Shown here piece after piece: positions 3,305 to 64,000 of a stretch of 64,000 bases of DNA; position 1 is the first letter of the stretch; the number at the start of each line of letters is the position of its first letter. This stretch comes from an uncultured Candidatus Saccharibacteria bacterium (GTDB lineage: Bacteria > Patescibacteriota > Minisyncoccia > Phycocordibacterales > UBA1006): contig CAZDPR010000001.1 of NCBI GenBank assembly GCA_964507625.1, forward strand, positions 5,012-69,011. The letters are read 5' to 3'. The notes below the pieces were generated by a model that searched no databases, was not told where the DNA came from, and was given only the letters and a program-made list of their open reading frames with translations. A program made the translations under genes and the position numbers.

Positions 3305-3310
3305 TAATAG

Positions 3311-3345: not shown

Positions 3346-3354
3346 CTATGTATG

Positions 3355-3427
3355 TGCGTCCGGTAGGAATCGAACCTACGACCCTCTGCTTAAAAGGCAG
3401 GTGCTCTACCGACTGAGCTACGAACGC
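3355..3427 (-). tRNA. tRNA-Lys (anticodon UUU)
   Basis: Reverse complement folds as GCGTTCG-TA-GCTC-AGTCGGTA-GAGC...anticodon loop CTTTTAA...GTAGG-TTCGATT-CCTAC-CGGACGC-A. Confidence 0.85.
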
Positions 3428-3468
3428 GAATAATGCAATTATACATAAAATAAGTATAATGACAAGAT

Positions 3469-3978: not shown

Positions 3979-3980
3979 AG

Positions 3981-3989
3981 TTATCCACA
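3981..3989. promoter_or_regulatory. perfect DnaA box TTATCCACA
   Basis: exact 9-mer consensus directly after the trmH-like stop. Confidence 0.4.
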
Positions 3990-3999
3990 GTTTTATTTT

Positions 4000-4027
4000 T
4001 TATAACGCTTGCGCGTTATTTTTTGTT
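4000..4027 (+). terminator. Rho-independent terminator
   Basis: ATAACGC-ttgc-GCGTTAT followed by TTTTTTG. Confidence 0.6.
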
Positions 4028-4317
4028 TACATATACTATAAGTGAGGATTTGAAAATTGAAGTAGAGCTTACACCACGGTTTGTGGAATTTTATAAAGCT
4101 ACTTCTTTCAAATGTTCTTTATATTGTTCCTTATAAACCTGTTCTCTATTTTTCTTTTTTATAGTTAATTCTATAAAACAAAACTCCTCACAATTTAATA
4201 TTTTTAATTTTTCTTTCCATTATCACATAGTTTATGTAGTAATAGAAAGTTAAAATATATCGTGTCCATTCTTTCCAAGATTGGGCACTTTTTTTATCAT
4301 CTTTTTTATGGTATTGT

Positions 4318-4794
4318 ATGTTTATGAATTATGAAATTGAACGAAAATTTTTAGTAACAAATAGTGACTGGCGAACTAATGTTACCGGAACTAATTATTA
4401 TCAAGGATATATTATATCTGACGAACTAAAATCAGTTCGTATTAGAATTGCAGGAGAAAAAGGATTTATTACTATTAAAGGAAAATCTGACAAAGACAGT
4501 ATTAGTCGTCCAGAATTTGAATATGAAATCCCTAAAAAAGAAGCAGAGTTTTTACTAGAAAATTTCTGTCTTCCTGGAAAAATACGTAAAATTCGCTATG
4601 AGAAAAAAATTGGTGATCATATTTGGGAAATTGATGAATTTTTAGAAGAAAACGAAGGATTGATTGTTGCAGAAATAGAACTTTCTTCTGAAAATGAACA
4701 TTTTGAAAAACCTGAATGGATAGGTGAGGAAGTTTCCTATGATAAAAAATATACCAATGGAGCACTGTCTCGAAATCCCTATAAAAACTGGTAA
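4318..4794 (+). CDS. CYTH-domain protein (triphosphate tunnel metalloenzyme)
   Basis: N-terminal EIERKFLV (ExExK signature) and 158-aa size. Confidence 0.7.
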   Translation: MFMNYEIERKFLVTNSDWRTNVTGTNYYQGYIISDELKSVRIRIAGEKGFITIKGKSDKDSISRPEFEYEIPKKEAEFLLENFCLPGKIRKIRYEKKIGDHIWEIDEFLEENEGLIVAEIELSSENEHFEKPEWIGEEVSYDKKYTNGALSRNPYKNW

Positions 4795-4823
4795 TAAAAA
4801 AGACCTACGCGAGGTCTTTTTTA
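4795..4823. terminator. bidirectional terminator
   Basis: AAAGACCT-acgc-GAGGTCTTTTTT. Confidence 0.65.
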
Positions 4824-5422
4824 TTAATTGATAGTAATAATTGTTCTAACTGCATTTCAAGGTTTCCATACTTACGGGCATTTGTATATGTTTCTAAAAA
4901 GCGATGTGTTGTTTGTTTTAATTCGTGTGATACTGTTTTCTTTTTTTTAATAATATCTTTTAATTTCCACCACAATATTCCAAAAATTACTTCAGGATCA
5001 TTCCCTTCAGTAAGTAACTGATGATATGTCACCCATAAAACCTTTGTATCACCTGACAGTAGTGTATTCGCAATACTAAAAGGATTTTGTTTAATTTCTT
5101 TTACTGTTTTTTCTTCCCACAAAACATGATTTGGTATTTTTTTAATTATTGCTGCGGGAAAATTTTCTTCTACCCAAAACACTTGCGTGGTTTTTGGTAG
5201 ATGCTCTAATGAATCAATAATAGTATTCCAGAAATCAGCATCAATTCTTGCAAGAATAATAACCCGAGGAATTTGAAATATATTTTCCGAAAGTAATTCT
5301 TGCTGTACGCGATCAATAGTGCTTACAATATCATACAATCGAGTAATATCATGGTGAGGAAAATTTTTTTTAATTTTTTCGTTTATTAATTCATGGGAAA
5401 TGTTTTTACAAAGCGTAATCAT
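4805..5422 (-). CDS. hypothetical protein, possibly DNA polymerase III delta subunit-like (HolA C-terminal pattern)
   Basis: ...IANTLLSGDTKVLWVTYHQLLTEGNDPEVIFGILWWKLKDI... resembles the delta-subunit domain III pattern; directly downstream of polA; start set to MITLCKN. Confidence 0.4.
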   Translation of the reverse strand: MITLCKNISHELINEKIKKNFPHHDITRLYDIVSTIDRVQQELLSENIFQIPRVIILARIDADFWNTIIDSLEHLPKTTQVFWVEENFPAAIIKKIPNHVLWEEKTVKEIKQNPFSIANTLLSGDTKVLWVTYHQLLTEGNDPEVIFGILWWKLKDIIKKKKTVSHELKQTTHRFLETYTNARKYGNLEMQLEQLLLSINKKDLA

Positions 5423-5438
5423 AATAGTATTAATATAA

Positions 5439-7823
5439 TTATATTTTATCAAAATTATCCCCAACCGCCAAAGAAACTTTTAGTGGTATGTCTGAACGTA
5501 GTAATTCTTTTACAACAATGTCTTTATGTCGAACTATTACTTGTTCCATAGTTTCTATGAGTTTTTGAGAAAAGTTATCTACTAATTCATTTGGAACTTC
5601 ATACACCAATTCATCATGAATTTGAAGTACGGGAAAAATTTTTGTATTCCAGTGTTCATTATGGATTACTTGATCAATATCAATCATTGCAAGTTTTATG
5701 ATATCAGCAGCGGTTCCCTGAATCGGAGCATTAATCGCAGTTCGTTCAGCAAGCGCAATCATGAATGGTAGTTTTGAACGAAACATTGGAAAATTTCGAA
5801 TTCTTCCAAAGAGTGTTTTTGTTTGCAATGTTTCTTTTGCAGATTTTTTAATACTATCCAGATAATCTTTAATCGAAGGAAACTCTCGAAAATATGCTTC
5901 ATAAAAAACTTCAGCTTCTTTACGAGAAGTATTCAAGTTTTTTTGGAGTGCAGTAATTCCCATTCCATAAATAATTCCAAAATTAATCACCTTTGCATTT
6001 CTCCGATGATTACTGGTTACTTGTGATTCGTCAATATGAAAAACGCGGGATGCAACAGTTGTATGAATATCTTTATTTTCTCTAAAAACTTGTTCTAAGA
6101 TCGGGTCTCCAGAAAGCATTGCTAGTACACGTAGCTCTATTTGAGAATAATCAGCAGAGACAAGTTTTGTTTTTGGTGAAGCGATAAATGCTTTTCTAAT
6201 TTCTCTTCCTAAATCACTGCGAATAGGGATATTTTGCAAGTTTGGATTTTGCGAAGAAAACCTTCCTGTGGTTGTTCCATGTTGTAAAAATTGTGCATGT
6301 AGTCGATTGTGACTATCAACTAGTGTAGGGAGTACATCAATATAGGTAGAAAGTAATTTTTGTAATTCTCGATAATCAACTATTTTTTGTACAACTTCAT
6401 GTTTATCAACGAGTTCCTCAAGAACTTCCGATCTGGTTGAATAACTACCCGTTTTGTTTTTTTTACCTTTTGGTGGTAGTTGTAAATCGCCGAAAAGAAT
6501 TTCTGATAATTGTTTTGGTGAATTAATATTAAATTCTTTTTGGGTGTATGTAAAAATTTCTTTTTCTTTTTTTTGTAACTGCTGATGATAATCTTTTGAA
6601 AGGTTTTCTAAAAACTTAACATCCAGTAAGATTCCGTGGTCAGACATTTTTTGTACAATAGCCACTAAAGGTTCTTCGATTGTTTGAAATACCTGGAGTA
6701 AATTTTGTTGCTGTAATTTTTGAATAATCACCTGATAGGCACTTTCTAGATTATTGGTTTCTGTTTCTTGAAAAATTTCTTCTTGTGTTGGTTTTACCAT
6801 GTCAGAATTAATCATCCATAAACCAATAGATGTTTTTAGAGGAAGGAGTGGATCACTATTTTTATGATGTGTATCAAATTCTTCTGTTGGTTCAAGGCTA
6901 TTTTTTTTGTTAAACAATTGTTCAAATTTTGGAGTAAGTGTTCTGAATTCGTATTCCCGAGTTAATCGAACAATTTTTTCTGGAGTATATATTTCTGAAA
7001 AAATTTTTTCCGGAAGGACAAAATCAATAGGTGCATCATTTCGAATTGTTGCTAATGTTTTTGAAAATAACGCATCAGCTTCGTGCTGAATAAGTAAATC
7101 AATAATTCTTGGTTTTATTTTTTTATCAACAAGTTTTTGCTTGTTCGTATGTATTGTTTCATATAATTGTTCAATAGTACCAAATTGAGTAATAAGTTCT
7201 GTTGCTGTTTTTTCTCCAATACCCGGAACTCCGACAATATTATCAGATGGATCGCCTCGTAGGCCCTTATAATCAGGAATATATTCTGGACCAAAACCAA
7301 AACGGTCAATAACTGCTTGTTCGTTATATACAACAGTTTCATGTACTCCTTTTTTCATAGTATAAACAACCACTTCTTCAGATCGAACTAATTGAAGTGT
7401 ATCCATATCACCCGAAACAATAACAATAGAAATTTCCTTTTCTGTTTTTAATTGTTCTACAATCGTTCCAAGCATATCATCTGCTTCAAATCCTGCTATT
7501 TGATACATAGGAATTTGGAGTGCTTCAAAAATGTTTCGAGATTCTTCAATTTGAACCTTTAACGTATCTTCTGTTTGTTTTCTCCCCTTTTTGTATCCAT
7601 CATATGATTCGTGACGAAAAGTTGGTTGAGGGAGATCGTAACATGCAATAATATAGTCAGGTTGAATATCTTGTACCATTTTTAAAAACATATTTAATAA
7701 TCCATATAACGCCCCGGTAGGAATTCCGGTAGATGAAGTGAGTGGTGGAACTGCGTGGAATGCACGATGAATAATCGCATGCACATCCAAAAGAACCAAT
7801 CGTTTTGTTCCATGTTTTGTCAT
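5439..7823 (-). CDS. polA: DNA polymerase I (5'-3' exonuclease plus polymerase domains)
   Basis: 794 aa; N-terminal LVLLDVHAIIHRAFHA (5' nuclease), C-terminal QIHDELVYEVP (Pol A motif C), KVINFGIIYG, RRNAK. Confidence 0.9.
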   Translation of the reverse strand: MTKHGTKRLVLLDVHAIIHRAFHAVPPLTSSTGIPTGALYGLLNMFLKMVQDIQPDYIIACYDLPQPTFRHESYDGYKKGRKQTEDTLKVQIEESRNIFEALQIPMYQIAGFEADDMLGTIVEQLKTEKEISIVIVSGDMDTLQLVRSEEVVVYTMKKGVHETVVYNEQAVIDRFGFGPEYIPDYKGLRGDPSDNIVGVPGIGEKTATELITQFGTIEQLYETIHTNKQKLVDKKIKPRIIDLLIQHEADALFSKTLATIRNDAPIDFVLPEKIFSEIYTPEKIVRLTREYEFRTLTPKFEQLFNKKNSLEPTEEFDTHHKNSDPLLPLKTSIGLWMINSDMVKPTQEEIFQETETNNLESAYQVIIQKLQQQNLLQVFQTIEEPLVAIVQKMSDHGILLDVKFLENLSKDYHQQLQKKEKEIFTYTQKEFNINSPKQLSEILFGDLQLPPKGKKNKTGSYSTRSEVLEELVDKHEVVQKIVDYRELQKLLSTYIDVLPTLVDSHNRLHAQFLQHGTTTGRFSSQNPNLQNIPIRSDLGREIRKAFIASPKTKLVSADYSQIELRVLAMLSGDPILEQVFRENKDIHTTVASRVFHIDESQVTSNHRRNAKVINFGIIYGMGITALQKNLNTSRKEAEVFYEAYFREFPSIKDYLDSIKKSAKETLQTKTLFGRIRNFPMFRSKLPFMIALAERTAINAPIQGTAADIIKLAMIDIDQVIHNEHWNTKIFPVLQIHDELVYEVPNELVDNFSQKLIETMEQVIVRHKDIVVKELLRSDIPLKVSLAVGDNFDKI

Positions 7824-7884
7824 AATTGTATTATATCACAAGGGTTTTATTTTTTCTCCCTAAATATGTGGTATAGTGCATGAT

Positions 7885-8376
7885 ATGAAAATTATCGCTA
7901 TTGACCCTGGTTATGATCGTGTAGGGGTTGCAATTCTTGAAAAAAAACCTAATAAAAGTAAGGAAGTTATTCTTTTTTCAACCTGTATCACCACTGATAA
8001 AAAGAAAGATTTTTATACCCGATTAACAGAAATTCAAGAAAAATTAACTGAATATATTACGGTATATAATCCAGAATTTTTTGTATTTGAAGAGCTTTAT
8101 TTTTCAAATAACACAAAAACAGCTCTCAAAGTAGCAGAGGCACGGGGTGTAATTAGTAGTTGTGCGCTTGCTAAAAAAATACCTATTCATGAAATACATC
8201 CTAATCATGTAAAAATTGCGATTACTGGGCATGGTGGTGCAAAAAAGGAAGATATTTTATGGATGTTACCAAAACTTATCACTTTAGAAACAGAGAACAA
8301 ACTTGATGATGAATTAGACGCAATTGCAATTGGACTTGCTTTTTTTGCGCAATATCGTATTTCACAGATTTCTTAA
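7885..8376 (+). CDS. ruvC: crossover junction endodeoxyribonuclease RuvC
   Basis: MKIIAIDPGYDRVGVAIL... and C-terminal DELDAIAIGLAF; the ORF-track start at 7876 is GTG, ATG at 7885 preferred. Confidence 0.85.
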   Translation: MKIIAIDPGYDRVGVAILEKKPNKSKEVILFSTCITTDKKKDFYTRLTEIQEKLTEYITVYNPEFFVFEELYFSNNTKTALKVAEARGVISSCALAKKIPIHEIHPNHVKIAITGHGGAKKEDILWMLPKLITLETENKLDDELDAIAIGLAFFAQYRISQIS

Positions 8377-8465
8377 AAAAGGTATTGCAAAAAACACAAA
8401 AGATTGTTACAACTACTGATAACCCTTCGCGTTGGTCATTGCGATTGGGTGTATTAGTAACCTAA

Positions 8466-8699
8466 TTGTTCATATGCTTATTGATCATTATGAGTAATGA
8501 TGCATATTACGATGACTCTATCGATCCTGAACTCGCTGATGGATTTCACCCAGTCGATGAAGATGATGAAATTTTCGATGAGGAAGATGAGATTATCCCA
8601 AAGAAAAAAATTGAACTTGATGATCTGGAAGAAGATATTGATACAGATCTCATAGACGAGGAAGAACTTGAAGAATTTCTTCACGATGAAGACTACTAA
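8466..8699 (+). CDS. highly acidic small protein (D/E-rich)
   Basis: ...DDSIDPELADGFHPVDEDDEIFDEEDEIIPKKKIELDDLEEDIDTDLIDEEELEEFLHDEDY; true start may be Met at 8490. Confidence 0.35.
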   Translation: MFICLLIIMSNDAYYDDSIDPELADGFHPVDEDDEIFDEEDEIIPKKKIELDDLEEDIDTDLIDEEELEEFLHDEDY

Positions 8700-8727
8700 A
8701 AAAGAACCCTTACGGGTTCTTTTTAGT
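8697..8727. terminator. bidirectional terminator
   Basis: AAAGAACCC-ttac-GGGTTCTTTTT. Confidence 0.65.
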
Positions 8728-8734
8728 AGTCTTA

Positions 8735-11377
8735 TTATTGAATAATATTAAGAGGAATGATTTGAGATGTTCGACTAAACACGGAATCTATTACTGTTAT
8801 CTCCAGATCGACCGTGCCTGGAATACTCACATAATCAGCAGGAATAAATTGATAATCTCCTGATTCTGATTCTTTACTACCAATAATTTGTCCATTTAAA
8901 CGAAACTCATATTTACGAATAGTTCTTCCTGGGAATGGTTGCGCAGTGGCAGTAATAATTATTGGTTGTTCTAGTTCGATTGTCTGATTTTCTGTTGGAG
9001 TAGCTATGGTTAATAATGGTTGTGTTTGTGCTGTGTGTACATCATCAAAACTAGAAGGTTTTTGTGGGGTTGTAGGAATGTTTCCTAAACCATTATTTCT
9101 AATCCACTCTTGAAAAGCAGCTTCCCAATTTTTATATTGACTGTCTGAAATTCCGATACCTGGGCGCGATTGTGTAAGATCGTTTTTATTAACCCAATAT
9201 AAAATTGATCGTGGTTCTTTAATAACATATTCTTGTCGAGTTTCTTTTGGAGTAAATTCTGTTGCTAATTTTCCTGAAATTTTATCAATAATAAATGATT
9301 CACCTCCCCACCATAATCCTCGAATTACTGGAGGTACATTATCAGGTGCGTCGCTATACATTCCAAATGATTGAACTGGCTTATCCACGAGCGCAGTGTT
9401 CATTACCGATCTCCATGTTGGTACTGAAATTGTTGAACCTCGCTTCATAGAAGTATTATTGTTGTTTCCAGACCATACCCCAACTACTATTTGTGGAGTA
9501 TATCCAACAATCCATGCGTCTTTATTATCATTTGTTGTTCCTGTTTTTGCGGCAACTGGTCGATCTCCAAAATTTAATTGGGAATTCGCCCCAAATAATG
9601 GTGTTCGTGCAACATTATCAGCCATTACCGATGAAATCATTCTCGCCGCATCACTAGAAATTACTTGTTCTCCTGGAATTTGTTTATATTCTTCTAAAAC
9701 TTTTCCTTGTAAATCTTCTATTTTTAATATTCCTGTTGGTGGTAATCGGACTCCATCATTTGCAAAAACACCGTACACTGAAGTTAGTTCGAGAAGAGAT
9801 ACTTCTCCACCTCCTAATACTAATGTTAATCCATAACGGTCAAAATTTCTATCAAGAGTTGTAATTCCTAATTTTTTTGCAGTTTGGAGTGCATCACCAA
9901 TACCCACTAAATAAAGCAATTTTACTGCTGGAACGTTTCGTGACTGACCTAATGCGTTTCGTAAACTAATTGGTCCTACAAATTTTCCATCATAATTATC
10001 TGGAGCATAACAATTTCCAGTACTTTCCCGAGAAAAAGCTCCACAAGAAGCACTAAACTGGGTTGGAACATCAAAAAGTACTGTTTCTGGCCGATATCCT
10101 TTTTCAAACGCTCGTGCATATACAATAGGTTTAAATGATGATCCTGGTTGTCTTCGTGCAGTAGTTACATTAAACTGACCATCAATATCTGGATCTAAAT
10201 ATCCTCGAGAACCTACCATAGCGAGAATCTGACCTGTTTTTGGATCAAGCGCTACTAATGCTTGGTTAGATGCATTCCATTCAGATTCATTTTTTAATGC
10301 ATTTTCTCGAACCTGTTTTTCTGCTTGTTCTTGAATTTTCCAATCAAGTGTTGTGGTTACTTTTAACCCATCAACTAACAGCGCATCTTTTCCATATTTT
10401 TCTTCTAAATACGCACGAATATAATCAACAAAATGAAGTGCTTTACCGCTACTTTCAGATAATGGCCTAAATTCTACTTCTTGCTCTCGTGCATCTTGGT
10501 ATTCTGATTCTGAAATATATCCCTGGTTAAACATTCTTTGTAATACTAAGTTTTTACGATTTTCTAATCGTTCTTTGTTTCTCCCGTAAGGTGAATAGAA
10601 TGTTGGCGCATTTGGAATTGAAGCAAGATATGCAGCTTCTGCAATAGTTATATCGTTACTTGATTTTCCAAAAAAGGTTTTAGCTGCTTGTTCAACCCCA
10701 TAAATTGCACCTCCGTAAGGAGCTTCGTTTAAATAAAGTGTAAGAATTTCATCTTTTGACATTGTTTGTTCTAATTTTAATGCTAAAATCCATTCTTTTA
10801 CTTTGCGAGAAATTCTTTTTTCAGAAGTTAGTAGTGTGTTTTTAATTACTTGTTGAGTAATGGTAGATCCACCACTTTCAGTAATAATATTCCCTGGAAT
10901 AATTTGAGATAATGCACCACGAACCATGGATGAAATTTTAATTCCATTGTGATTATAAAAATCCTTATCTTCAATAGCAATTACTGCATCTTTTATATCC
11001 TGATCAATAAAATCTCCCCCAACGACAGTTCTTTTAATGTTTTCATGAACATCATATAAAATTACTTCACCTGTTCGATCATAAATTTTTGTTGAACTTG
11101 CAACTTTTCGTTCAGAAAAATTATCAAGAGTTGGTAGTTGTAATGTCGCAACCCAAATAAAAAATCCTCCAACAGCTAACATTCCTAAAACTAAACAACT
11201 CCAAAATACTAATTGTGTATGATGACTAATCCAGTCAAACATTTTTTGAAACAATGAGTGTGATTTTTTTGCAACCTTTCGCACATGAGGCTCTGCATGT
11301 TTTTGATATGTTTTTTGTGTCTGTGTTTTTACTGAACGTACTGTATCAAAAAACTTTTTTGATTTATTTTGATTCAT
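8735..11377 (-). CDS. class A penicillin-binding protein (transglycosylase plus transpeptidase), PBP1A-like
   Basis: 880 aa; N-terminal TM; GT51 motifs (EDKDFYNHNGI), transpeptidase SxxK (GSSFKP), SxN (SRN), KTG (KTGTT). Confidence 0.85.
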   Translation of the reverse strand: MNQNKSKKFFDTVRSVKTQTQKTYQKHAEPHVRKVAKKSHSLFQKMFDWISHHTQLVFWSCLVLGMLAVGGFFIWVATLQLPTLDNFSERKVASSTKIYDRTGEVILYDVHENIKRTVVGGDFIDQDIKDAVIAIEDKDFYNHNGIKISSMVRGALSQIIPGNIITESGGSTITQQVIKNTLLTSEKRISRKVKEWILALKLEQTMSKDEILTLYLNEAPYGGAIYGVEQAAKTFFGKSSNDITIAEAAYLASIPNAPTFYSPYGRNKERLENRKNLVLQRMFNQGYISESEYQDAREQEVEFRPLSESSGKALHFVDYIRAYLEEKYGKDALLVDGLKVTTTLDWKIQEQAEKQVRENALKNESEWNASNQALVALDPKTGQILAMVGSRGYLDPDIDGQFNVTTARRQPGSSFKPIVYARAFEKGYRPETVLFDVPTQFSASCGAFSRESTGNCYAPDNYDGKFVGPISLRNALGQSRNVPAVKLLYLVGIGDALQTAKKLGITTLDRNFDRYGLTLVLGGGEVSLLELTSVYGVFANDGVRLPPTGILKIEDLQGKVLEEYKQIPGEQVISSDAARMISSVMADNVARTPLFGANSQLNFGDRPVAAKTGTTNDNKDAWIVGYTPQIVVGVWSGNNNNTSMKRGSTISVPTWRSVMNTALVDKPVQSFGMYSDAPDNVPPVIRGLWWGGESFIIDKISGKLATEFTPKETRQEYVIKEPRSILYWVNKNDLTQSRPGIGISDSQYKNWEAAFQEWIRNNGLGNIPTTPQKPSSFDDVHTAQTQPLLTIATPTENQTIELEQPIIITATAQPFPGRTIRKYEFRLNGQIIGSKESESGDYQFIPADYVSIPGTVDLEITVIDSVFSRTSQIIPLNIIQ

Positions 11378-11444
11378 ATATGCGCACTATACAACATTTT
11401 TTGATTTTTTACAAAAAATCGTTTTTCTGGTACTGTGTCGGTAT

Positions 11445-12656
11445 ATGACCGATACAAATCCAGAAAAAATACAAGAATTTCTTTATCGTGGAGTAGAAAA
11501 AATTCTTCCTTCTCGAGACTTTGTGCAACAACAACTCGAATCTGGAAAACGATTAAAAATCTATTATGGAATTGACCCAACAGGCCCTAATCTCCATATT
11601 GGACACGCTATTGCAATTAAAAAATTAGCTCAACTACAACGTATGGGTCATGAGATTATATTCTTGATTGGAGACTTTACCGCAATGATTGGTGATCCGA
11701 CAGATAAACTCGCTGCCCGGGTAACTCTTACTCCAGAACAAATTGTAGAAAACTTGAAAAATTACAAAGAACAAGCTTCAAAACTGGTTCGATTTGACGG
11801 AGAAAATCCTGCAGAATTACGATTTAATAATGACTGGTTGGGAAAAATGGATTTTCCTGAAGTTATTAATCTTTGTTCAAAAGTAACCGTTCAACAACTT
11901 CTCGAACGTGATATGTTCCAGGTTCGTATAAAAGAAGAAAAACCAATCTACGCCCATGAAATCCTTTACCCATTAATGCAAGGGTATGACAGTGTCGCAC
12001 TGATGGTAGATGGTGAAATCGGAGGAAATGATCAATTATTTAATATGATGATGGGTCGTGAACTTTTAAAAGAACATGGGAAAGAAAAATTTGTCATGAC
12101 TGTAAAACTCCTGGCTGATGCAAACGGTAAAAAAATGGGGAAATCAGAAGGAAATATGATTACACTTGAAGACTCACCTGATGACATGTTTGGAAAAATT
12201 ATGTCATGGACTGATGGAATGATTATTGCAGGATTTGAATTATGTACCGATATTCCTGACCAAGAAATCACCACTATCGCAATCTCTATTCAAAATGGTG
12301 ATAATCCAATGCAGTACAAAAAACAACTCGCACGAGAAATTATTACTCTCTACCATAGCGCAGATCAAGCTATTAATGCACAAAATAATTGGGAACAAAC
12401 GTTTTCTGAAGGTGGAATTCCAGAAAATATTCCAGAAATCAACGGAGAATCTGAAAAATTGTTATCAGAAGTATTAGTAGAACATGATTTTATTGGATCA
12501 AAAGCAGAATTTAGACGATTAACTGATGAAGGTGGTGTAAAAATTATTACCAAGGATCTATCTGAAGAAAAAATTACGGATTTCCAATATAAACTTTCTG
12601 AAACGATTATTGTAAAGGTTGGGAAAAAGAAGTTTGTGAAAATAATTATAAACTAA
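11445..12656 (+). CDS. tyrS: tyrosyl-tRNA synthetase (class I, HIGH/KMSKS)
   Basis: YYGIDPTGPNLHIGHA...LIGDFTAMIGDPTDK...KMGKS; C-terminal S4-like RNA-binding tail. Confidence 0.7.
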   Translation: MTDTNPEKIQEFLYRGVEKILPSRDFVQQQLESGKRLKIYYGIDPTGPNLHIGHAIAIKKLAQLQRMGHEIIFLIGDFTAMIGDPTDKLAARVTLTPEQIVENLKNYKEQASKLVRFDGENPAELRFNNDWLGKMDFPEVINLCSKVTVQQLLERDMFQVRIKEEKPIYAHEILYPLMQGYDSVALMVDGEIGGNDQLFNMMMGRELLKEHGKEKFVMTVKLLADANGKKMGKSEGNMITLEDSPDDMFGKIMSWTDGMIIAGFELCTDIPDQEITTIAISIQNGDNPMQYKKQLAREIITLYHSADQAINAQNNWEQTFSEGGIPENIPEINGESEKLLSEVLVEHDFIGSKAEFRRLTDEGGVKIITKDLSEEKITDFQYKLSETIIVKVGKKKFVKIIIN

Positions 12657-57320: not shown

Positions 57321-59525
57321 ATGAATCAAATTTTTTTTAGAAACCAGCAAAGTATTTTAAAAGAAAAACCAGGTGATAAAAAAATTGAAAGTTTTGAAGA
57401 CCTTTCAAAGAATTTTGATTTCTATAACCTAGATCAAAAGGGATATAGTAATTTTGTAAAAGATTTCTCAAATGAATTTCTTGAAAGAGAATTTAAATTG
57501 GGGAGAATAATAAAAGACCCTACAGGAAGGCTTGTTGTAAATACTCAGACAGAGGATTTTATTAAAAGTGCTATTGATAGAATTAGTAAATTTAAAACAA
57601 GAAGGCCTGACGATGTTTCATTTTTACTTCTTTTATATAGTGATATTTTTATAAAAACTGAAAATGGACTAGAAAAATTCCTAGATATTCCAAAAACCAA
57701 AGATCATTTATTGACTGGATCAGAAGGTTTTCATGATTTTCTCTCCTTAAAAGGTGTTTCTCCAAAAGTGGAAATAGTTTTACCAGATGGAACAAAAACA
57801 AATCCTTTAGAAATCTCTTTTTTGAGAGCATGTAGGAAATATAACATTTCTAGACAAAAGGGTGATAAGCTTTTTTATACTAATCCAGAAACAGGAAAAA
57901 GAGAAAGATTTTTCATAAAAAGAATTGAAGATGGTTCTATAAAAATGAAATATTTTAAAGAAATGTTTAATATAGAAAAAATAAAAGAAATCCTACATAA
58001 TTGCTTCGAGGAAGAGATAATTAAAACTACAGATTTTCGACTAGACAATAGAGATAATTTTGGCTTAGATGAAAAAAGTTTTGAAAATAAAAAAGTTTTT
58101 TTTGGTCCCAAGTATGCAAGTTTTACCACTATTCCTGGCTATTCAATACGTTATTATTTAGGTAGAAATAAAATACCAGGTATTAATATTGACTGGAAGC
58201 CAACAATAAAATTATCTAGACTAGACAAAAACACCGCTGCGTTTATAGACTCAAGTTATGGTGTTAATAAAATTATTGCAACACTTGACTTATTCCAAGA
58301 TAAATATGCTATAGAGAAAATGTTTCTGACCGCAAAAGAGTTAGGAGTTAAAGATCCTGATGCAAATTTAGTACTCAATAATGATTATACAGAAAAGAAC
58401 ATACAATCTTTTGATATTAAAAATATTTTACCTCAATTTGTAAAGGAAAACCCACTAGATCACCTAGATTTCTTAAGTCAGGTTACTGATGTAAAAAATG
58501 TTATAAATATGACTAGAAGTGTATTAGAAAAATTAAACATTTCTGTTCTTGAAATACCATTCAAACAACAGGTATTACTGTTCGGCTCTCTTAGTCAAAT
58601 AGGAAAGGAGGATGAGGTTATAAATTTAGTTAAAAAATTTAAAATTAATGGATTAAAAACTTTCCTTTCTCTTGAACATGGTGGACAAGAAATGGGTGAT
58701 AAAATTCTTGAGCTAGGTAAGATACTCGAACAACACGATGCAGAGCGTGTATTTACTGGATACGCACAAATTATTGATCAAGCAGATTCGTTAAAAAATC
58801 GTCTAGAAAATTCATTACAAGATCGGGATATAGTCTCACTTGAACTAAAGAAGAAAATCCCCCACCAGATATATGATGCGTTGTTACTTCGTGCAAAAGA
58901 TATTTTAATAGGCGCTCATATGGTTGCAACAGGAACGATTGAAGGAAAACTCGATATTGATGAAGTGTGTAATGCACTTGCAGGTATTACTAAAATGCTT
59001 CATATTATTAATCATTTACATACCCAGGATTACTATCAGTTTACTAAAACACTTGAGACACCCCAAAATCATAAATATCATATTATTGATTCTGTAACAC
59101 AACATGAATACATCTTAAAAATTTTCTTGCGACCATATGCAGAAAAAAACGCTCAAGCCCGTGCCAATTTTGAATTATCTTTTGACACAAAAAATCCAGA
59201 TCCAATATTACAAAAAACATTTTATAATGAAATTATTTCACATACCCAGAATAAAAAGATATCAGGTTCAGTATTACGTATTGGTATTGATCGAGAGGAT
59301 TATGATGGAGTTGGTCGTGTATCACTCGATATAGGAAGGTCAGAACGCAGTGATACAGAACTTACTCGTACTGGAGATATACTTGGAAACTTACTTTCAT
59401 ATGCATCTATCGATGGCCACCATACCACAGAACCATTCAGTTCAGAATTTGGTGATCCAGAAACATTCGCACAACTTGTAAACCTACTAGGAACGTCATT
59501 AATAAAACAAAAACAGCCTAATTAG
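57321..59525 (+). CDS. hypothetical 734-aa protein
   Basis: long ORF with native codon usage; no recognisable motif. Confidence 0.45.
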   Translation: MNQIFFRNQQSILKEKPGDKKIESFEDLSKNFDFYNLDQKGYSNFVKDFSNEFLEREFKLGRIIKDPTGRLVVNTQTEDFIKSAIDRISKFKTRRPDDVSFLLLLYSDIFIKTENGLEKFLDIPKTKDHLLTGSEGFHDFLSLKGVSPKVEIVLPDGTKTNPLEISFLRACRKYNISRQKGDKLFYTNPETGKRERFFIKRIEDGSIKMKYFKEMFNIEKIKEILHNCFEEEIIKTTDFRLDNRDNFGLDEKSFENKKVFFGPKYASFTTIPGYSIRYYLGRNKIPGINIDWKPTIKLSRLDKNTAAFIDSSYGVNKIIATLDLFQDKYAIEKMFLTAKELGVKDPDANLVLNNDYTEKNIQSFDIKNILPQFVKENPLDHLDFLSQVTDVKNVINMTRSVLEKLNISVLEIPFKQQVLLFGSLSQIGKEDEVINLVKKFKINGLKTFLSLEHGGQEMGDKILELGKILEQHDAERVFTGYAQIIDQADSLKNRLENSLQDRDIVSLELKKKIPHQIYDALLLRAKDILIGAHMVATGTIEGKLDIDEVCNALAGITKMLHIINHLHTQDYYQFTKTLETPQNHKYHIIDSVTQHEYILKIFLRPYAEKNAQARANFELSFDTKNPDPILQKTFYNEIISHTQNKKISGSVLRIGIDREDYDGVGRVSLDIGRSERSDTELTRTGDILGNLLSYASIDGHHTTEPFSSEFGDPETFAQLVNLLGTSLIKQKQPN

Positions 59526-59537
59526 GCTGTTTTTGTT
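59506..59537. terminator. bidirectional terminator between convergent genes
   Basis: AAAACAAAAACAGCCTAATTAGGCTGTTTTTGTT. Confidence 0.65.
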
Positions 59538-60366
59538 CGTGGAGTGGATGTTTTTCTTTTGCAGTATTCCAAATAAAATTGAATATAATGAGGAATGTTG
59601 TATACGTAGCATAATCGTCAATAATAGTAGTAATCATTGTTTCTCCAAAAGAAGTAATACCAACTTTTTGTTTACCATAGAGAATAATTTGGGCTGGAAT
59701 ATTAAAAACCTCAATAGGAACAACTTGACGTTCTACAAAGTGTTTTTCATCAAATTCTTTTACCCAATGAAAAGTATCTTCTACTATTGGAGTGATTGCT
59801 TTAGTATGGATATTGTTTGTCACCTGTTTTTGAATTTGTTTTAATATTTTATCATCTACTTCGGGGTGGTTTCGATCAGCTGGTGATTGAATAAGAAAAA
59901 TATCTTTTTTTTCACTGATAATATCAGACCATAATCGTTCAAGCCCCTTGATACCTTCAAAAAATTGAACCCCTGGTTTTTCTTGAAATAAATTAAACTG
60001 AGATAAAAACGTGCCAAGATTCGCAGAAACAGTTTCTTTTGCAAGTTGGATATTTTTTTCTTGACTTTCCAACATGTCGATCAGGCGATCGGGATGAGAA
60101 GGGGAATAGGTGGTTACTGTCCCAGTACCACCTTTTTTCTGTACAAGTCCTAAATGCTCCAATTGTTCAAGTGTTTTATAAACTAACCCCCTTTTAACAC
60201 CTGTCCATTTTGAAAGTTCTCCAGCTTTTTGAGCACCTTTTTCTAATAATGACTGATAAATAAGCGCTTGATCTGCTGAGAGGCCTGATTGAATAAGAAT
60301 GTTTTCTTCTGTCATACCTCGATAGTATATACTATTTTGTTTTGTCATGCAAATATGACAAAACAT
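59518..60366 (-). CDS. wHTH (TrmB-like) putative regulator, divergent paralog 4
   Basis: N-terminal ...ALIYQSLLEKGAQKAGELSKWTGVKRGLVYKTLEQLEHLGLVQKK wHTH; divergently transcribed from the ncRNA-candidate promoter. Confidence 0.45.
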   Translation of the reverse strand: MFCHICMTKQNSIYYRGMTEENILIQSGLSADQALIYQSLLEKGAQKAGELSKWTGVKRGLVYKTLEQLEHLGLVQKKGGTGTVTTYSPSHPDRLIDMLESQEKNIQLAKETVSANLGTFLSQFNLFQEKPGVQFFEGIKGLERLWSDIISEKKDIFLIQSPADRNHPEVDDKILKQIQKQVTNNIHTKAITPIVEDTFHWVKEFDEKHFVERQVVPIEVFNIPAQIILYGKQKVGITSFGETMITTIIDDYATYTTFLIIFNFIWNTAKEKHPLHEQKQPN

Positions 60367-60430
60367 TTAATTAAAAAAGCTATATTTTATAATGTTTATT
60401 TTAAAAAATATAATTTTTATTCACAAGTCA

Positions 60431-60459
60431 TTGACAAAACAATATGATTATGCTATACT
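60431..60459 (+). promoter_or_regulatory. consensus sigma70-type promoter (TTGACA-17 nt-TATACT) firing rightward
   Basis: TTGACA at 60431-60436, 17-nt spacer, TATACT at 60454-60459; predicted TSS about 60466. Confidence 0.6.
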
Positions 60460-60465
60460 GTGGGT

Positions 60466-61264
60466 AAGAAAATGAGATATGAAATTAATCACATCTCAGA
60501 TTCAGTTCTTTCCATACAGATTATCTATTCAATTAAGAACGTACTACCGAATGGTCAGGGGAGCCAAAAATCGCCATAACGAAGAAGTAGAGACGAGGAG
60601 AGCTTAACCGAGTAGATAATGGTTCATAGAATGATCGGAGTAGGAAAACAATGACTTGAACCTCATCTGTTCCCTATATTCCACTAAGTGCTTAGCGGCC
60701 GACGGATTGCATCATTCACACAGTCTTATAACGAGATCTGCTGGGATAATACGACTAACCCCCGTATTACCTAGAAATCTCTTTAGAAGAAAATTATTTA
60801 AGAGGAGAGATCTTACATAATTCTAAAGAGGAGAGAAATCTTCTTTGTAAATTGAATAGACACTGACCACAAAACCTGATGAGGTGTGTAACGCACGGTA
60901 GGGGGTTGTGGGTGCAGATAACATATAAGTTTTAAAGACAATCTACTCACAAAGTAATAAACAGTGGAGGATGATTGTCTACCTTATTGAGCCGGCAGGG
61001 TTACCCGCGCCAGATCCGCGTCTCCATTGGAGACCTGGGATCATTTCCGGGTAGTCGGCTCATTGGGTTTGCACCCTCCTGAACTAGGGACCACCAGTTT
61101 AAGGATGGGGAGGGGCAGTGGCTGAGTTCACTATAACCCGTCCCGCTCCAAAGATGACTCAGTCACGACTCTGTTAGATCGGAGAACTGAGTTGAGATGT
61201 TAGTGAGGGTGCAAAAAAAATATAAGGGGAGAAAAACCGAGCAATCGGCCTCCCCTCTTTTATC
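60466..61264 (+). ncRNA. candidate large (about 800-nt) structured non-coding RNA of unknown family
   Basis: bounded by a consensus promoter and a GGGGAG...CTCCCC+TCTTTTAT terminator; no ORF of 60 aa or more in any frame across about 900 nt; GC well above the genome background; numerous local hairpins and a duplicated AAGAGGAGAGA element. Confidence 0.35.
61226..61264 (+). terminator. Rho-independent terminator ending the ncRNA candidate
   Basis: GGGGAG-aaaaaCCGAgcaaTCGGc-CTCCCC then TCTTTTAT. Confidence 0.55.
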
Positions 61265-61730
61265 CAGCAGAGGAGAGAATCGTCTGTTGGTAGAAGTTGT
61301 GAAATTGTTTCCAGAACTTTCTGTTCAATAGTATTGAATGGTTGGTTATGGAAATAATGTCAAATATGGTCAGCCTTCCGGGGCTGACCGTCGTGGGTAA
61401 GATAGATTTGCCCACGAAAACTGCGGGCAAAAAAGCCCGCAAAAAATATTTCAAACCTTTCACCGGTGGGTCGACCATCGGGGAAAGGTTGAAAGCCGCA
61501 GGTGTTACTTTAAAGTAACACCTGCGGTGGTCACCGAATGACCTCAAAAATGTCGGCGTGATAGAGTGATCCTTACGAGAAATGGATTGCAGGTTCATTA
61601 GACCAAAGCGTGTTTGCAAAGTAATGCCTTGGCATGAAATGCAGAGATCTTTGGCAAGCAAACAGAGCCTGTAAGCTCTGGCGGTACCTAAAATAAAACC
61701 GCGCTTTTCTTTTTTTAAATCATATAATAT

Positions 61731-62165
61731 ATGATTATAAAAAAAGAAGTCAATTCCCTTCAAATCCTCGAAATTTTCGACGGATTTGGAGGGGTGTTCC
61801 TTGGAGCACTGAGTCTGTTCTTGAAACAGCAGTGGGATATCTCCCTCTGCATTGAAAGAGCAGATTCACTTGCCGAAGGGCTCCACGAGGAGATTGATGG
61901 TTTTGAAACAGTAAACCTAAATTATTCCTGGGAGTCACAAGGTGACGATGAACTTGTAATCCACTACTTTTCACGTAGTGGAAATGAATACAAGTTCATC
62001 CTAAACAAGGGATTTGCTTTGTGGGATCGTAAAAAATCCCACAGAGTAGAATTTTTCAATGGAACCTCGTTAGAGAGTTTCATTGAAAAGGTGTGTGCCT
62101 CAGAAGGTACACACCCGAATCCTTTGTTTAGAAGGAACACGACCACCACAGACACCGAAATATAG
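61731..62165 (+). CDS. doubtful 144-aa ORF in the GC-elevated, hairpin-rich region
   Basis: starts right after the AT-rich palindrome ATCATATAaTATATGAT; region contains strong hairpins (for example GTGTGTGCC...GGTACACAC) and overlapping antisense ORFs, so coding status is uncertain. Confidence 0.2.
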   Translation: MIIKKEVNSLQILEIFDGFGGVFLGALSLFLKQQWDISLCIERADSLAEGLHEEIDGFETVNLNYSWESQGDDELVIHYFSRSGNEYKFILNKGFALWDRKKSHRVEFFNGTSLESFIEKVCASEGTHPNPLFRRNTTTTDTEI

Positions 62166-62759
62166 TAGGTGTCAGTGGTCCTCGGAGTTAGGAAGTTTTT
62201 TCCTTCGAGGTAAAACCGGACAATGTGTCTGGCGTAGTGAACCAATAAGCTACGAACAGGTGAATGATTGTGAAAGGTTTCCAAGGGAATCAATCAAAAC
62301 TTAGCCACCAAAAAGAACGGCGTTTGATAGTGAGTACGCTTCGTGCCAGCAATGGAATAACACGAGAAAACTGTCTGATAGTGTCACCTACTACGTGGTG
62401 AGCCTAGCGGAAGCAGATCCGACATGACGAGAAGTCACAGTTATCCCAAGCAGGCGTGGTTGCCTGCTTGGGCAAGAGGGTTATGGCAAAGTAATTTGCC
62501 ACTCTTATTCCATTATCAAGTTTGTAATTTGATAGTGGATTAGAGGTAAATTGGTAAGAGTATCAAGAATGCATGGTTCACCATGTTTTTTTATTACTCT
62601 TACCAAGGAACGCACGTTGTGCAAGTACCTTCCGAAAAACTGATTCTCGTGAAAGCCATGCCAGGCAGGAAGACGAGTGAGGTAAACAGTTCACGCCGAG
62701 TATGTTCTCGGAAAAATTCTGGATGAAATGAAATCCCTGGCCAGACAGGGTAAGAAAAT

Positions 62760-63314
62760 ATGGCTAAAACTTTGAGTTTGGCAGAATTTTCTCAAATCGC
62801 AAAAGCAGCGCAAGCGCGCGTTGCTGAGCGTGGTCCAGCCTACTATGGCTGGGTGAATGCGCCTGAAAGAACAGGTCGCATTTTCACCCAAACCCAAGGC
62901 TGGGGTCAATCAGCCAAAAAAGTAAAAGCCTCCCCAGTGGAGGCTTTAGAAATTTATAAGAAAAAATTGGATGGAGCGTACGGCGAACGGTTTGTAATGA
63001 GCCTGGGACTTATCGCCTCACTCATTGCGAACGGATATTCTGTTCGTTTTGTGCAATTCCAAAAGGAGGCAGGCGTGCCGTTTAACGCCTCCGGCTGGAC
63101 AGTCATCGTCGTGGAGACGATGCCAATTTTTCACATCGCTCCGGAGGATCTCCGGTTGAGCGATGTTCAGGATCTCGTAGAGATTCTGACTGATAACCAA
63201 GCTCCAGATGTGGCTTGGAAAAAAACCAATAAAGTCGGCGAATTCGCCGCCTTACTGGCTGGCTCAATCGAGCCCGGGCTGGACTTGGTAAAAATTGCTC
63301 AGGAGAATTCTTAA
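62760..63314 (+). CDS. hypothetical 184-aa protein with foreign (about 50% GC) composition
   Basis: clean ORF with protein-like composition; no recognised motif; lies in the GC-elevated island. Confidence 0.4.
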   Translation: MAKTLSLAEFSQIAKAAQARVAERGPAYYGWVNAPERTGRIFTQTQGWGQSAKKVKASPVEALEIYKKKLDGAYGERFVMSLGLIASLIANGYSVRFVQFQKEAGVPFNASGWTVIVVETMPIFHIAPEDLRLSDVQDLVEILTDNQAPDVAWKKTNKVGEFAALLAGSIEPGLDLVKIAQENS

Positions 63315-63533
63315 TCTCTTGAGCTATGTCCTACGCGAGACCGTAGGAAGAGCACATGCCTGACGTGCGAATTCTGGTTAATCAGGTAATGAGAGTTTGG
63401 TTGTAACTCTTGAAAAAACAATCGACAGGGTTAAAGGGTTAACATGGAGAGCAATCTCCAACTGTCTCCGTCTCATAGGCGGACTGATGAGTCTTGTTCT
63501 GAATAATACTGAAGAACGAAAGACGAAACAGGA

Positions 63534-63797
63534 ATGGTTCCAAACATGTTTGAGTGGGTATTTTTTATCTATTCAAATATGTTTGGAACCTGTAAGGTTC
63601 CCGGTTGCTGTAAACCAGCAATCGGGAGCTACTGGGGTGGTTCTCCTGGCGTATGTCAGGAGCACTTTGATGCCCCAAAAAAGGCCGAACGTGAAAAAAA
63701 AGAAAGAGTCTATAACGAGGCTCTTTCTGCAATCATGCGTAAGTATGATTGCTCACGTGAGGCTGCTGAAATAATACTTCGTAAAGGGGTATTATAA
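63534..63797 (+). CDS. small Cys-rich (putative zinc-binding) protein
   Basis: ...GTCKVPGCCKPAIGSYWGGSPGVCQEHF... C-x4-CC...C-x2-H cluster; GC-rich island. Confidence 0.3.
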   Translation: MVPNMFEWVFFIYSNMFGTCKVPGCCKPAIGSYWGGSPGVCQEHFDAPKKAEREKKERVYNEALSAIMRKYDCSREAAEIILRKGVL

Positions 63798-64000
63798 TTT
63801 CAGCTCCCCCTGTCTCGATGGCACAACAGGGGATTCCAAGAAGGCAAAGCCTTCATCGAGAATAAACTTCTTGGACATAGAAACTGATTCAACTATGTAA
63901 AAAAGATCAGAAAGCAGATTCGTGAACACTGCTTGGAATAAAGTTCACCCCAACGACTGCGGGTAAAAGTCACAAAGGTTCCACCCATCACGCGTGGTTG

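Follow-up and report, generated by a model that had tools for sequence, protein, structure and literature searches.

What does the stretch at 60431-61264 encode, within the 64,000 nucleotides of DNA that were analysed (the window), if it encodes no protein? The original prediction had singled it out as an undescribed, promoter-driven, ORF-free structured RNA. We found it to be a genuine structured non-coding RNA of ultra-small (CPR/Patescibacteria-type) bacteria that had not been catalogued before, a conclusion supported by the conservation of its promoter, by covariation, by the lack of an Rfam match and by the absence of a micro-ORF. Related loci are referred to below by number (L001, L002 and so on).

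The RNA is preceded on the plus strand by a sigma70-type promoter (60431-60459) consisting of a -35 hexamer TTGACA (60431-60436), a 17-nt spacer ending in TGc, which supplies the extended -10 TG, and a -10 hexamer TATACT (60454-60459). With a score of 11/12 plus the TG extension, this was the top promoter-like site within 59000-64000. The pattern aTTGACAaaac..TGCTATACT was kept across six aligned loci and was present in L003 and L031 as well, in agreement with the promoter assignment made originally. Transcription is predicted to start near 60466.

Divergent from the RNA lies a gene for a TrmB-family winged-helix regulator (59518-60366, minus strand; Pfam TrmB, E = 2.6e-11), as had been proposed; its true start is probably near 60315. 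Homologues of the regulator are 261-275 aa long, and the gene adjoins the leader in L002, L031, L035, L045, L046, L049 and L052. A control region of 115 bp is common to this gene and the RNA promoter. Between the two we found an inverted repeat, the palindrome TGTTTTGTCATGCAAATATGACAAAACA (60338-60365, not assigned to a strand), whose form TTGTCAT-N6-ATGACAA is kept in the window, L046, L045, L052 and L049, and of which both half-sites are altered together in L002 (TTGTAAT..GTTACAA). The half-site TGACAAAAC was found again over the -35 hexamer. The palindrome is a candidate operator, to which the TrmB-family regulator may bind. This arrangement resembles the switch of a temperate element, in which a winged-helix regulator gene diverges from a strong promoter with a palindrome between them and a half-site over the -35 hexamer; likewise, the RNA promoter, which the regulator may repress, reads into variable, GC-shifted DNA. 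It differs from such a switch in that the regulator belongs to the TrmB family, has a host-like composition and a housekeeping neighbourhood, and is accompanied by no recognised integrase or phage genes.

No ORF of 60 aa or more follows the promoter for about 890 nt, the longest six-frame ORF within 60367-61259 being 54 aa and the longest stop-free run 61 codons, which bears out the original statement that all six frames lack such ORFs. Recoding of TGA, TAG or TAA disclosed no concealed long ORF in this stretch, and a small-ORF protein search returned no matches. Comparison of the homologue sequences yielded no micro-ORF with a common start, frame and stop; the sole semi-conserved frame was broken by UAA in L045 and L052, and mismatches between homologues were even over the three codon phases, without codon periodicity. 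Taken together, the ORF, recoding, micro-ORF and codon-phase tests excluded a hidden coding region or an alternative genetic code.

Nor does the RNA belong to a catalogued family. A scan of the whole window at the Rfam 15 gathering thresholds gave only four tRNAs, all outside the RNA, and permissive scans (E<=10) of 60300-64000 and 60440-61300 gave chance-level matches in the RNA (best E = 1.1). ARAGORN detected neither a tRNA nor a tmRNA in 60400-64000. GOLLD, ROOL, OLE, HEARO, raiA, RNase P, 6S, tmRNA, SRP, group I/II introns, riboswitches and Y RNA were thus rejected as identities for want of an Rfam 15 match, in line with the original proposal of an undescribed element, and a description of this RNA was not found in the literature.

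Homologues were found in other metagenomic genomes. Full-length copies adjoin TrmB-regulator genes in three of these, and a further five contain the central hairpin module (L049, L035, L007, L003 and L031, homologous at the level of this module). Conservation is limited to the first ~460 nt of the RNA, a core of ~40% GC (60466-60927, plus strand) defined by homologues and covariation, which is 68-81% identical to the sequences beside the trmB genes of L045, L046, L002 and L052. The consensus fold of the core contains 72 pairs, 93.9% of which are paired across the alignment, as compared with 37-46% in slid controls; compensatory (double) changes occur in 26 of the 72 pairs, as compared with 2-6 in the slid controls, in a set limited to five close homologues, four full-length and one partial, from which the fold itself was derived. 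None of 500 shuffles equalled this pairing. G-U pairs, which are compatible with the plus strand only, occupy 14 cells of the core alignment. Folding energy was in keeping with the strongly structured region predicted originally: the minimum free energy of 60466-61264 was -250 kcal/mol (z = -4.8 against dinucleotide shuffles). Since the minus strand folds as well (z = -6.4), folding energy alone does not indicate the strand.

Domain 1 of the core (60519-60622, plus strand) is, in the consensus fold, a long irregular hairpin of helices H1-H6 with the invariant strands CCGAAUGGUCAG, GAGCC(A/U)AAAAUC and AACGAAGAAG and a single-stranded GAGGAGAG. Its closing helix AUUAUCUA/UAGAUAAU is replaced by AUUUCUGA/UCAGAAAU in L002 and L052, and a covariance model of the domain (R1) scored 107-131 bits in five loci, with no matches elsewhere. 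Domain 2 (60629-60717, plus strand) encloses a variable interior within the 7-bp covarying helix H7, which is 100% paired with compensatory change in 4/7 pairs. Domain 3, the P_a module (60724-60790, plus strand), is a three-tier hairpin with the stems GAGAU, CUGGG and UAAUACG and a near-invariant loop ACUAACCCC (60754-60762). It is the most widely conserved module of the RNA: model R2 located it at the expected place and on the expected strand in L002, L046, L052, L049, L035, L007, L003 and L031. In nine sequences its 17 pairs were 98% canonical, with compensatory change in 13 of them, counts that rest on a hand alignment because MAFFT mis-registered the loops of the distant modules; slid controls were 21-49% paired, and 0 of 1000 shuffles matched.

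Domain 3 is followed by two hairpins presenting GGAGAGA and then by the conserved block UUCUUUGuAAAUUgAAUAG (60797-60859, plus strand). Further downstream, P_b (60867-60911, plus strand) has an asymmetric internal loop that is invariant (AACCUGAUGAG / GGUAGGGG) and is flanked by two covarying helices. The outer helix changes from CCACAA/UUGUGG to CUAUGA/UCAUAG and CCGCA/UGCGG, and the inner helix from GUGUG/CGCAC to GCCA/UGGC and GCC/GGC. With model R3 of this element, four loci scored 85-95 bits and L049 scored 24 bits. Neither domain 1 nor P_b was detected in more distant members, even with filters off. Since P_b contains CUGAUGAG, a degenerate hammerhead was considered and rejected, as GGUAG, which is invariant across the family, stands where the essential GAAA belongs.

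In its length of hundreds of nucleotides, its several covariation-supported domains, its freedom from ORFs and its visibility in an AT-rich genome, the RNA resembles OLE, GOLLD, ROOL, raiA and HEARO. It is distinguished from them by the lack of a covariance-model match, by a conserved part that is not GC-rich, by a fixed place after a TrmB-controlled promoter, and by hallmarks of its own, namely the AGGAGAG repeats and the ACUAACCCC loop. As with GOLLD and ROOL, which occur in prophages, it lies at or in horizontally variable DNA, and its function is not obvious from the context.

The element AAGAGGAGAG, whose duplication had been noted originally, occurs at 60800 and 60826, and related copies of GAGGAGAG occur at 60595 and 61270. 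The four GGAGAG motifs of the RNA region make it ~75 times denser in this motif than the rest of the window. All eight leaders carry 3-5 sense copies and 0-1 antisense copies, 10-75 times above background, and several AGGAGAG copies occupy the loops of hairpins with covarying stems. The sites are Shine-Dalgarno-like, with no conserved start codon after them. Repeated, exposed SD-like or GGA motifs in an untranslated 5' RNA, without a following start codon, are likewise found in STAB-SD (cryIIIA-type) elements and in CsrB/RsmZ. The STAB-SD stabiliser of mRNA 5' ends is, however, a single short element, and Csr sponges carry ANGGA loops without a large covarying architecture.

It might be supposed that the RNA is itself a sponge of the CsrB/RsmZ type, sequestering a CsrA-like translational regulator on its repeated GGA-containing motifs. 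The strand-specific and strongly enriched A(N)GGA-containing motifs, 3-5 per RNA, and the presence of several of them in hairpin loops on covarying stems are consistent with this. However, we consider it quite unlikely: the repeat is a fixed 7-mer, AGGAGAG, rather than an ANGGA-in-loop consensus, 3-5 copies are fewer than in typical sponges, most of the covarying structure (domain 1, the P_a module and P_b) would have no role in a simple sponge, and a csrA gene was not seen in the 64-kb window or in the partial related loci.

Beyond the core, the RNA of this genome continues into a lineage-specific GC-rich 3' extension (60928-61222, plus strand; 50-55% GC), which folds into a long hairpin and a multi-branched domain (MFE z = -6.3). 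No homologue of it was found, so that its structure rests on folding energy only; it is absent from L002 and L046, and a different GC-rich insert occupies its site in L052. The extension is followed by an intrinsic-terminator-like hairpin and then UCUUUUAU (61226-61263, plus strand; GGGGAG..CUCCCC with an inner CCGA/UCGG, dG -16 kcal/mol), the DNA reading GGGGAG..CCGAgcaaTCGG..CTCCCC and then TCTTTTAT. The original description of the transcript as terminator-bounded thus held for the hairpin and T-run of the window and failed for its relatives, in which a terminator at the 3' end of the RNA is not conserved: the hairpins of L002 and L046 are weak and their U tracts poor, and L052 has a GC hairpin without a U tract. 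Because of this, a terminator-bounded transcript of 800 nt may be true only in this genome; across the family, the RNA may just as well form a long 5' leader on one transcript with the downstream genes.

The terminator also bears on whether the RNA is a riboswitch-like attenuator that senses a metabolite or protein, with the core as aptamer and the hairpin at 61226-61263 as expression platform. A position in the 5' region of an operon, invariant internal loops between covarying helices and the terminator-like hairpin of this genome would suit such a device. We nevertheless regard it as very improbable, as ~300 nt of non-conserved sequence separate the core from the terminator, homologues lack the terminator, the downstream genes are functionally incoherent and no known riboswitch model matches.

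Conserved RNA modules were found past the terminator. A fourth GGAGAGA hairpin (CCAGCAGA-GGAGAGAAUCG-UCUGUUGG; 61264-61290, plus strand) has a counterpart in L002 with the altered stem CCAAAGA..UCUUUGG, and comparable copies of GGAGAGAG lie 3' of P_b in L046 and L049. It is followed by a highly conserved 5'-UTR/start element (61294-61351, plus strand) that matches two copies in L046 (5702-5643 and 4605-4553) at 92-94% identity, against ~76% in the flanking DNA, and that is joined to different ORFs in different genomes. Since AGGAGAG hairpins and conserved UTR modules extend beyond the terminator-like hairpins, it appears that in most genomes the RNA runs on into the downstream transcript. The first gene to encode a protein past the RNA in the window is a small ORF of 56 aa (..LPGLTVVGKIDLP..FKPFTGGSTIGERL..; 61348-61518, plus strand), which has no family match; its product is 57-65% identical to proteins in L002 (tblastn E 1.5e-10) and L052, and a related N-terminus occurs in L049. 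The gene at this place varies, from an ORF of 48-56 aa in the window, L002 and L052, to a 100-aa membrane protein, preceded by the 5'-UTR/start element, in L046, and a hammerhead with a 186-aa gene in L003.

The original prediction had placed an abrupt jump in GC content at the promoter. Instead, the rise was gradual, with a GC fraction of 0.23-0.32 at 60300-60600, ~0.40 at 60500-60900, and 0.50-0.55 only at 60900-61200. A GC-rich segment is present (60928-61222), as had been argued from the appearance of a GC island, but it has no homologue, and the conserved core is only ~40% GC. As the raised GC persists up to the window end, the RNA region is the edge of a larger island of at least 3.6 kb and not an isolated 0.8-kb GC island. 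The 60 kb upstream are densely coding under table 11, and the genes upstream of the RNA are housekeeping genes syntenic with L002. An independent Logan contig, L001, was identical to the window over 59508-61525, which shows that the junction between TrmB and the RNA did not arise as a chimera of one assembly alone; together with the matching gene order of L002, this ruled out a chimeric assembly where the composition changes.

The RNA is the first feature after the promoter at the edge of this GC-rich island of variable gene content, which also holds other conserved RNA modules, a hammerhead, the conserved 56-aa ORF and a 184-aa protein of no known fold. The hammerhead (63462-63531) is of type III, with the full core CUGANGA..GAAA in the Rfam alignment, a UH cleavage site and three helices (stem III open), and is predicted to self-cleave; its score of 30.0 bits (E = 0.0013) is below the Rfam gathering score of 48.5. 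In related loci, a purpose-built hammerhead descriptor picked out 8 sites, every one of them on the gene strand; it gave 0 for the opposite strand and for reversed and shuffled sequence. Related islands encode an RNA helicase (DEAH/HrpB-like), DHH, RtcB and 2H/LigT, RtcB having been seen in one related locus, L041, which has no detectable copy of the RNA. A phage or plasmid origin was rejected. No window ORF had a PHROG or PADLOC match, phage records contained no match to the RNA, and neither phage nor plasmid records contained one to the 184-aa protein; three pattern scans of IMG/VR yielded 0, 0 and 15 matches, and the covariance model accepted none of the 15.

In L003 the island is flanked by 79-nt direct repeats beside a tRNA gene whose 3' end is duplicated. 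This, the good folding of both strands and the repetition of modules between cassettes, which suggests recombination, would fit a function at the DNA level in an integrated element (an attachment, recombination or replication site), or else a non-functional spacer or decayed coding sequence. Such explanations appear the least probable of those considered. The L003 direct repeat falls outside the RNA, pairing is kept by compensatory changes with G-U pairs that fit the plus strand only, the motifs are strand-specific, a conserved strong promoter is directed into the region, and neither codon periodicity nor an ORF remnant was found.

We tentatively favor, at a little short of an even chance, a reading in which this uncatalogued RNA family is a cis-acting leader of the island transcript with its AGGAGAG sites bound in trans. 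Rightward transcription from the extended -10 sigma70 promoter would place the RNA at the head of the island transcript, where the core, with its three covariation-supported domains and P_b, would show three to five exposed AGGAGAG motifs. The RNA may be a leader with regulatory and stabilising effects in cis. A trans factor drawn to the AGGAGAG sites and the invariant loops, either the anti-SD of the 30S subunit (as for STAB-SD stabilisers, and here the general bacterial anti-SD rather than that of the host's rRNA) or an RNA-binding protein, could set how stable the downstream cassette transcript is, whether it is terminated or read through, and how it is translated. In this genome, the lineage-specific GC-rich extension and the strong terminator would additionally release a discrete RNA of ~0.8 kb. 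Transcription, the transcript ends, factor binding and the regulatory outcome are what we infer here. The variation of the downstream genes between genomes is unusual for a dedicated cis-regulator, and against the leader reading the strong terminator parts the RNA from the genes in this genome, where a free-standing RNA fits equally well.

Weighed beside it is a trans-acting RNP RNA of ~0.5-0.8 kb, freed by termination or processing, that would scaffold island proteins such as the 184-aa protein, the DEAH/HrpB-like helicase and RNA repair enzymes. This is possible and, in our judgement, less probable than the leader. The size, multi-domain fold and invariant loops exceed the needs of a typical cis-leader, a strong terminator stands right after the RNA in this genome, the RNA is retained while the downstream cargo switches, and genes for RNA helicases, DHH, RtcB and 2H/LigT enzymes occur in related islands. 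Such an RNA would have parallels in orphan large RNAs such as ROOL, GOLLD and OLE. A precedent is offered by the bacterial Y RNAs (YrlA/YrlB), which are encoded in rsr-rtcBA RNA-repair operons (PMC4201824, PMC7790460). As in those operons, a non-coding RNA lies in or heads a gene cluster, and related clusters hold RtcB, 2H/LigT, DHH and RNA-helicase genes. However, no Ro60/TROVE gene was found (Pfam, neighbouring genes), nor a Y RNA model match or a tRNA-like module, and the RNA is 4-8 times larger than Y RNAs. Further points against a free-standing RNA are that the terminator is not conserved, that the 184-aa gene is missing in L046, L049 and L052, all of which bear the RNA, and that the RNA co-occurs strictly with no protein partner except TrmB.

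A bolder reading, which we regard as unlikely, would make the RNA the head module of an undescribed class of RNA-centred, cassette-built and at least sometimes mobile CPR islands. A long transcript would run from a single strong TrmB-gated promoter, and reusable RNA modules between the cassettes, including type III hammerheads directly before ORFs, would cut it into units, which island-borne RtcB and 2H enzymes could re-ligate or circularise. The leader might then serve as an RNP scaffold, or as a stability and packaging determinant, for the processing of RNA.

A new class of large structured RNA is seldom found in bacteria, and previous discoveries of this kind have led to new biochemistry. 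The genomes of Patescibacteria/CPR bacteria are reduced, with little room for non-functional DNA, and we found no curated or published non-coding RNA family from them beyond the universal ones. The anatomy of the present RNA is unusually clear, with a conserved promoter and operator, three covarying domains, invariant loops and repeated SD-like sites. Together with its island, it provides a concrete, testable handle on RNA processing and control in CPR bacteria. If the island transcript is indeed cut and re-ligated, it would represent a natural bacterial case of RNA circularisation by a ribozyme plus RtcB.

The original prediction placed an ORF-free structured transcript at 60431-61264 (+), divergent from a regulator gene, trmB (59518-60366, -), which was indeed assigned to the TrmB family. 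As claimed, no ORF of 60 aa or more was found: between the start region of trmB and 61259 the longest in any frame is 54 aa, and recoding of TGA, TAG or TAA created no hidden ORF in the RNA region. Rfam 15 at gathering thresholds yielded only four tRNAs in the window, all outside the RNA, while permissive scans (60300-64000 and 60440-61300) gave only chance-level matches inside it and an ARAGORN search of the region gave no match, in keeping with the claim that the RNA falls in no known family. A search of a literature library did not find a description of the RNA. Each strand of 60466-61264 folds better than shuffled sequences (z = -4.8 and -6.4), and an independent Logan contig (L001) was identical to the window across 59508-61525. 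The GC rise proposed at the promoter was present, but as a gradual climb rather than an abrupt step, reaching 50-55% only at 60900-61200. Since GC content past 61200 holds near 45% up to the window end, a larger GC-rich island has its left edge here.

Related loci were fetched using as queries the TrmB protein and the product of a 184-aa ORF (62760-63314), a genuine, conserved protein with 76 relatives. The RNA region proved to be conserved at the DNA level in four of these loci, L045 (81% identity to the window; truncated by the contig end), L046 (76%; L047 and L048 are identical to it over this region), L002 (74%) and L052 (68%), with a divergent trmB adjoining in every case. A consensus fold of 72 pairs was built from an alignment of five close sequences, and when pairing was scored on the same alignment, 93.9% of cells were paired, as compared to 37-46% with partners slid by 1-3 columns. 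The compensatory changes anticipated for a structured RNA were found in 26 of the 72 pairs, changed on both sides, versus 2-6 in the slid controls, and none of 500 column shuffles reached the observed values. G-U pairs in 14 cells agree with the + strand. The alternative that conserved small ORFs underlie the region was not borne out among the homologues: no micro-ORF has a common start, frame and stop, the sole partly shared reading frame is interrupted by UAA in L045 and L052, and substitutions fall equally across the three codon phases. Among bacterial leaders and large structured orphan RNAs, the RNA forms a new class.

The conserved RNA segment is 60466-60927 (~40% GC). This part of the predicted ~800-nt structured RNA was sustained, whereas the GC-rich 60928-61222 is missing from L002 and L046 and replaced by an unrelated GC-rich insert in L052; its fold is a prediction from folding energy (z = -6.3). 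Domain 1 (60519-60622) is a long irregular hairpin whose closing helix shows full compensation between subgroups, domain 2 (60629-60717) is closed by a covarying 7-bp helix, and domain 3 (60724-60790) is a three-tier hairpin, the loop of which, ACUAACCCC, is nearly invariant. Next come two hairpins with GGAGAGA and a conserved block (60797-60859), and then the module P_b (60867-60911), in which two covarying helices flank an invariant internal loop, AACCUGAUGAG/GGUAGGGG. The duplicated element, AAGAGGAGAG, was located at 60800 and 60826, and copies of the related GAGGAGAG at 60595 and 61270. Covariance models built for three modules retrieved every close homologue (85-131 bits), and the domain 3 model also located its module in L049, L035, L007, L003 and L031, in the expected place and strand. 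Over nine domain 3 modules, aligned by hand for the pair counts, the 17 pairs were 98% canonical, with compensatory change in 13; slid controls gave 21-49%, and 0 of 1000 shuffles matched. Domain 1 and the loop sequences of P_b were confined to the closer subfamily and were not detected in distant members. GGAGAG, mostly AGGAGAG, occurs in 3-5 sense-strand copies in each of eight leaders, at 10-75 times the same-locus background and with at most one antisense copy; it includes the Shine-Dalgarno core, yet conserved start codons do not follow.

The predicted sigma70 promoter, TTGACA-17-TATACT (60431-60459), carries in addition a TG extension and is the top promoter-like site within 59000-64000. 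Between it and trmB lies a palindrome, TTGTCAT-N6-ATGACAA (60338-60365). Our locus comparison showed both to be kept in six loci, and in L002 both half-sites of the palindrome are altered in concert. The start of the longest trmB ORF (60366) falls within the conserved palindrome. Since TrmB homologues span 261-275 aa, the gene probably begins instead at an ATG near 60315 (MTEENILIQ..). A TrmB-family protein, acting via the palindrome, would gate the leader promoter. The conservation, covariation and non-coding character of the RNA, and the enrichment of its motif, are shown; all that concerns its function we infer, and we favour a cis-acting structured leader that binds a trans factor. Its exposed AGGAGAG sites and invariant loops would bind this factor, which could be the 30S anti-SD, in parallel with STAB-SD stabilisers, or an RNA-binding protein, and its binding would control how stable the island transcript is and to what extent it is read through and translated. 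A free-standing RNA that acts as an RNP scaffold is the main rival; Y RNAs in rsr-rtcBA operons offer a contextual analogue (PMC4201824, PMC7790460), and the variable cargo and the strong terminator in the window genome favour this reading. This terminator, a hairpin of -16 kcal/mol followed by UCUUUUAU (61226-61263), was found as predicted, but it is particular to the window genome in comparison with L002, L046 and L052, and the terminator-bounded transcript may not extend to these homologues. A sponge, a riboswitch-like RNA and a DNA element are less likely readings.

Conserved elements resume 3' of the terminator. A further GGAGAGA hairpin (61264-61290) precedes a 58-nt UTR/start element (61294-61351, +; 58-63 nt across copies), which includes the palindrome UUCAAUAGUAUUGAA plus a start codon. 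It is 92-94% identical to two L046 copies (5702-5643 and 4605-4553) that precede different ORFs, as compared with ~76% in the flanks, and may serve in recombination or in translation initiation. The protein of the 56-aa ORF (61348-61518) is conserved in L002 and L052. A perfect 16+16-nt palindrome, CCGCAGGTGTTACTTT/AAAGTAACACCTGCGG (61496-61527), lies across its stop codon; the L001 contig terminates inside this palindrome, and GGTCACCGAATGACCTYAAAAATGTCGGCG, directly after it, is kept in L002. Motif B (61557-61612, +), 83% identical to L031 5857-5913, has a hairpin with a compensatory change, and Motif A (62143-62210, +), a conserved non-coding module 83% identical to two L031 copies, overlaps the end of an unconserved 144-aa ORF. 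The structured 5' UTR of ~170 nt before the 184-aa gene (62591-62759, +) is 77% identical to the region that in L052 precedes an unrelated 449-aa gene. Cassettes thus appear to exchange RNA modules by shuffling.

Upstream lie housekeeping genes (CTP synthase, CCA-adding enzyme, UPF0102, UvrD) in synteny with L002, and the RNA is therefore the first feature of the GC-shifted island, whose gene content differs among genomes. Related islands encode DEAD/DEAH helicases (HrpB-like, HA2) and a DHH phosphoesterase, and in L041 the 184-aa/helicase pair is surrounded by genes for MoxR-AAA, VWA, LigT (2H) and RtcB. In L003, 79-nt direct repeats (97% identical; 8888-8966/15636-15714) bracket a 6.7-kb island starting with the leader promoter, and the adjoining tRNA gene has its 3' end duplicated 144 bp downstream (8724-8745/8868-8889); on account of these repeats and this duplication, at least the L003 island looks like an integrated element. 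No recognisable integrase was seen in it, and searches for an integrase, phage or plasmid relationship found none. Repeated intergenic modules were also observed in the islands of L007 (five copies of a 73-nt hairpin element and three of an 88-nt UTR, 6358-12281), L002 (93-nt direct repeats around a 210-aa ORF, 13230-13322/14200-14292) and L041 (two copies of a 45-nt hairpin with a ribosome-binding site, 5348-5392/6731-6775). On the far side of trmB, the closest relative, L045 (TrmB 84% identical), carries type IV secretion/conjugation-like genes (SLT, TraG-like P-loop, TraC-like, PrgI; 1076-6417) where the window has a 734-aa gene. The cumulative GC skew of the window has a minimum near 35-36 kb and then rises, possibly at a switch of replication origin or terminus that has no connection with the RNA.

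A type III hammerhead with a complete catalytic core was found in the window at 63462-63531 (+), at 30 bits (E = 0.0013), under the gathering score. The AGGA immediately 5' of the ATG of an 87-aa ORF (63534) overlaps the 3' strand of the ribozyme's stem III. Further type III hammerheads are present in L003 (9891-9939 and 12517-12595), L021 (1006-1056), L031 (7459-7518 and 8509-8568) and L035 (4305-4353 and 5971-6019). They are intergenic, immediately 5' of ORFs, and all eight are on the gene strand, with none in reverse, reversed and shuffled controls. Near-identical pairs bracket segments of 1.05 kb in L031 and 1.67 kb in L035 and, judging from this arrangement, could release circularisable RNAs. 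Such RNA-rich cassette islands with hammerheads may be a more unusual phenomenon than the RNA itself.
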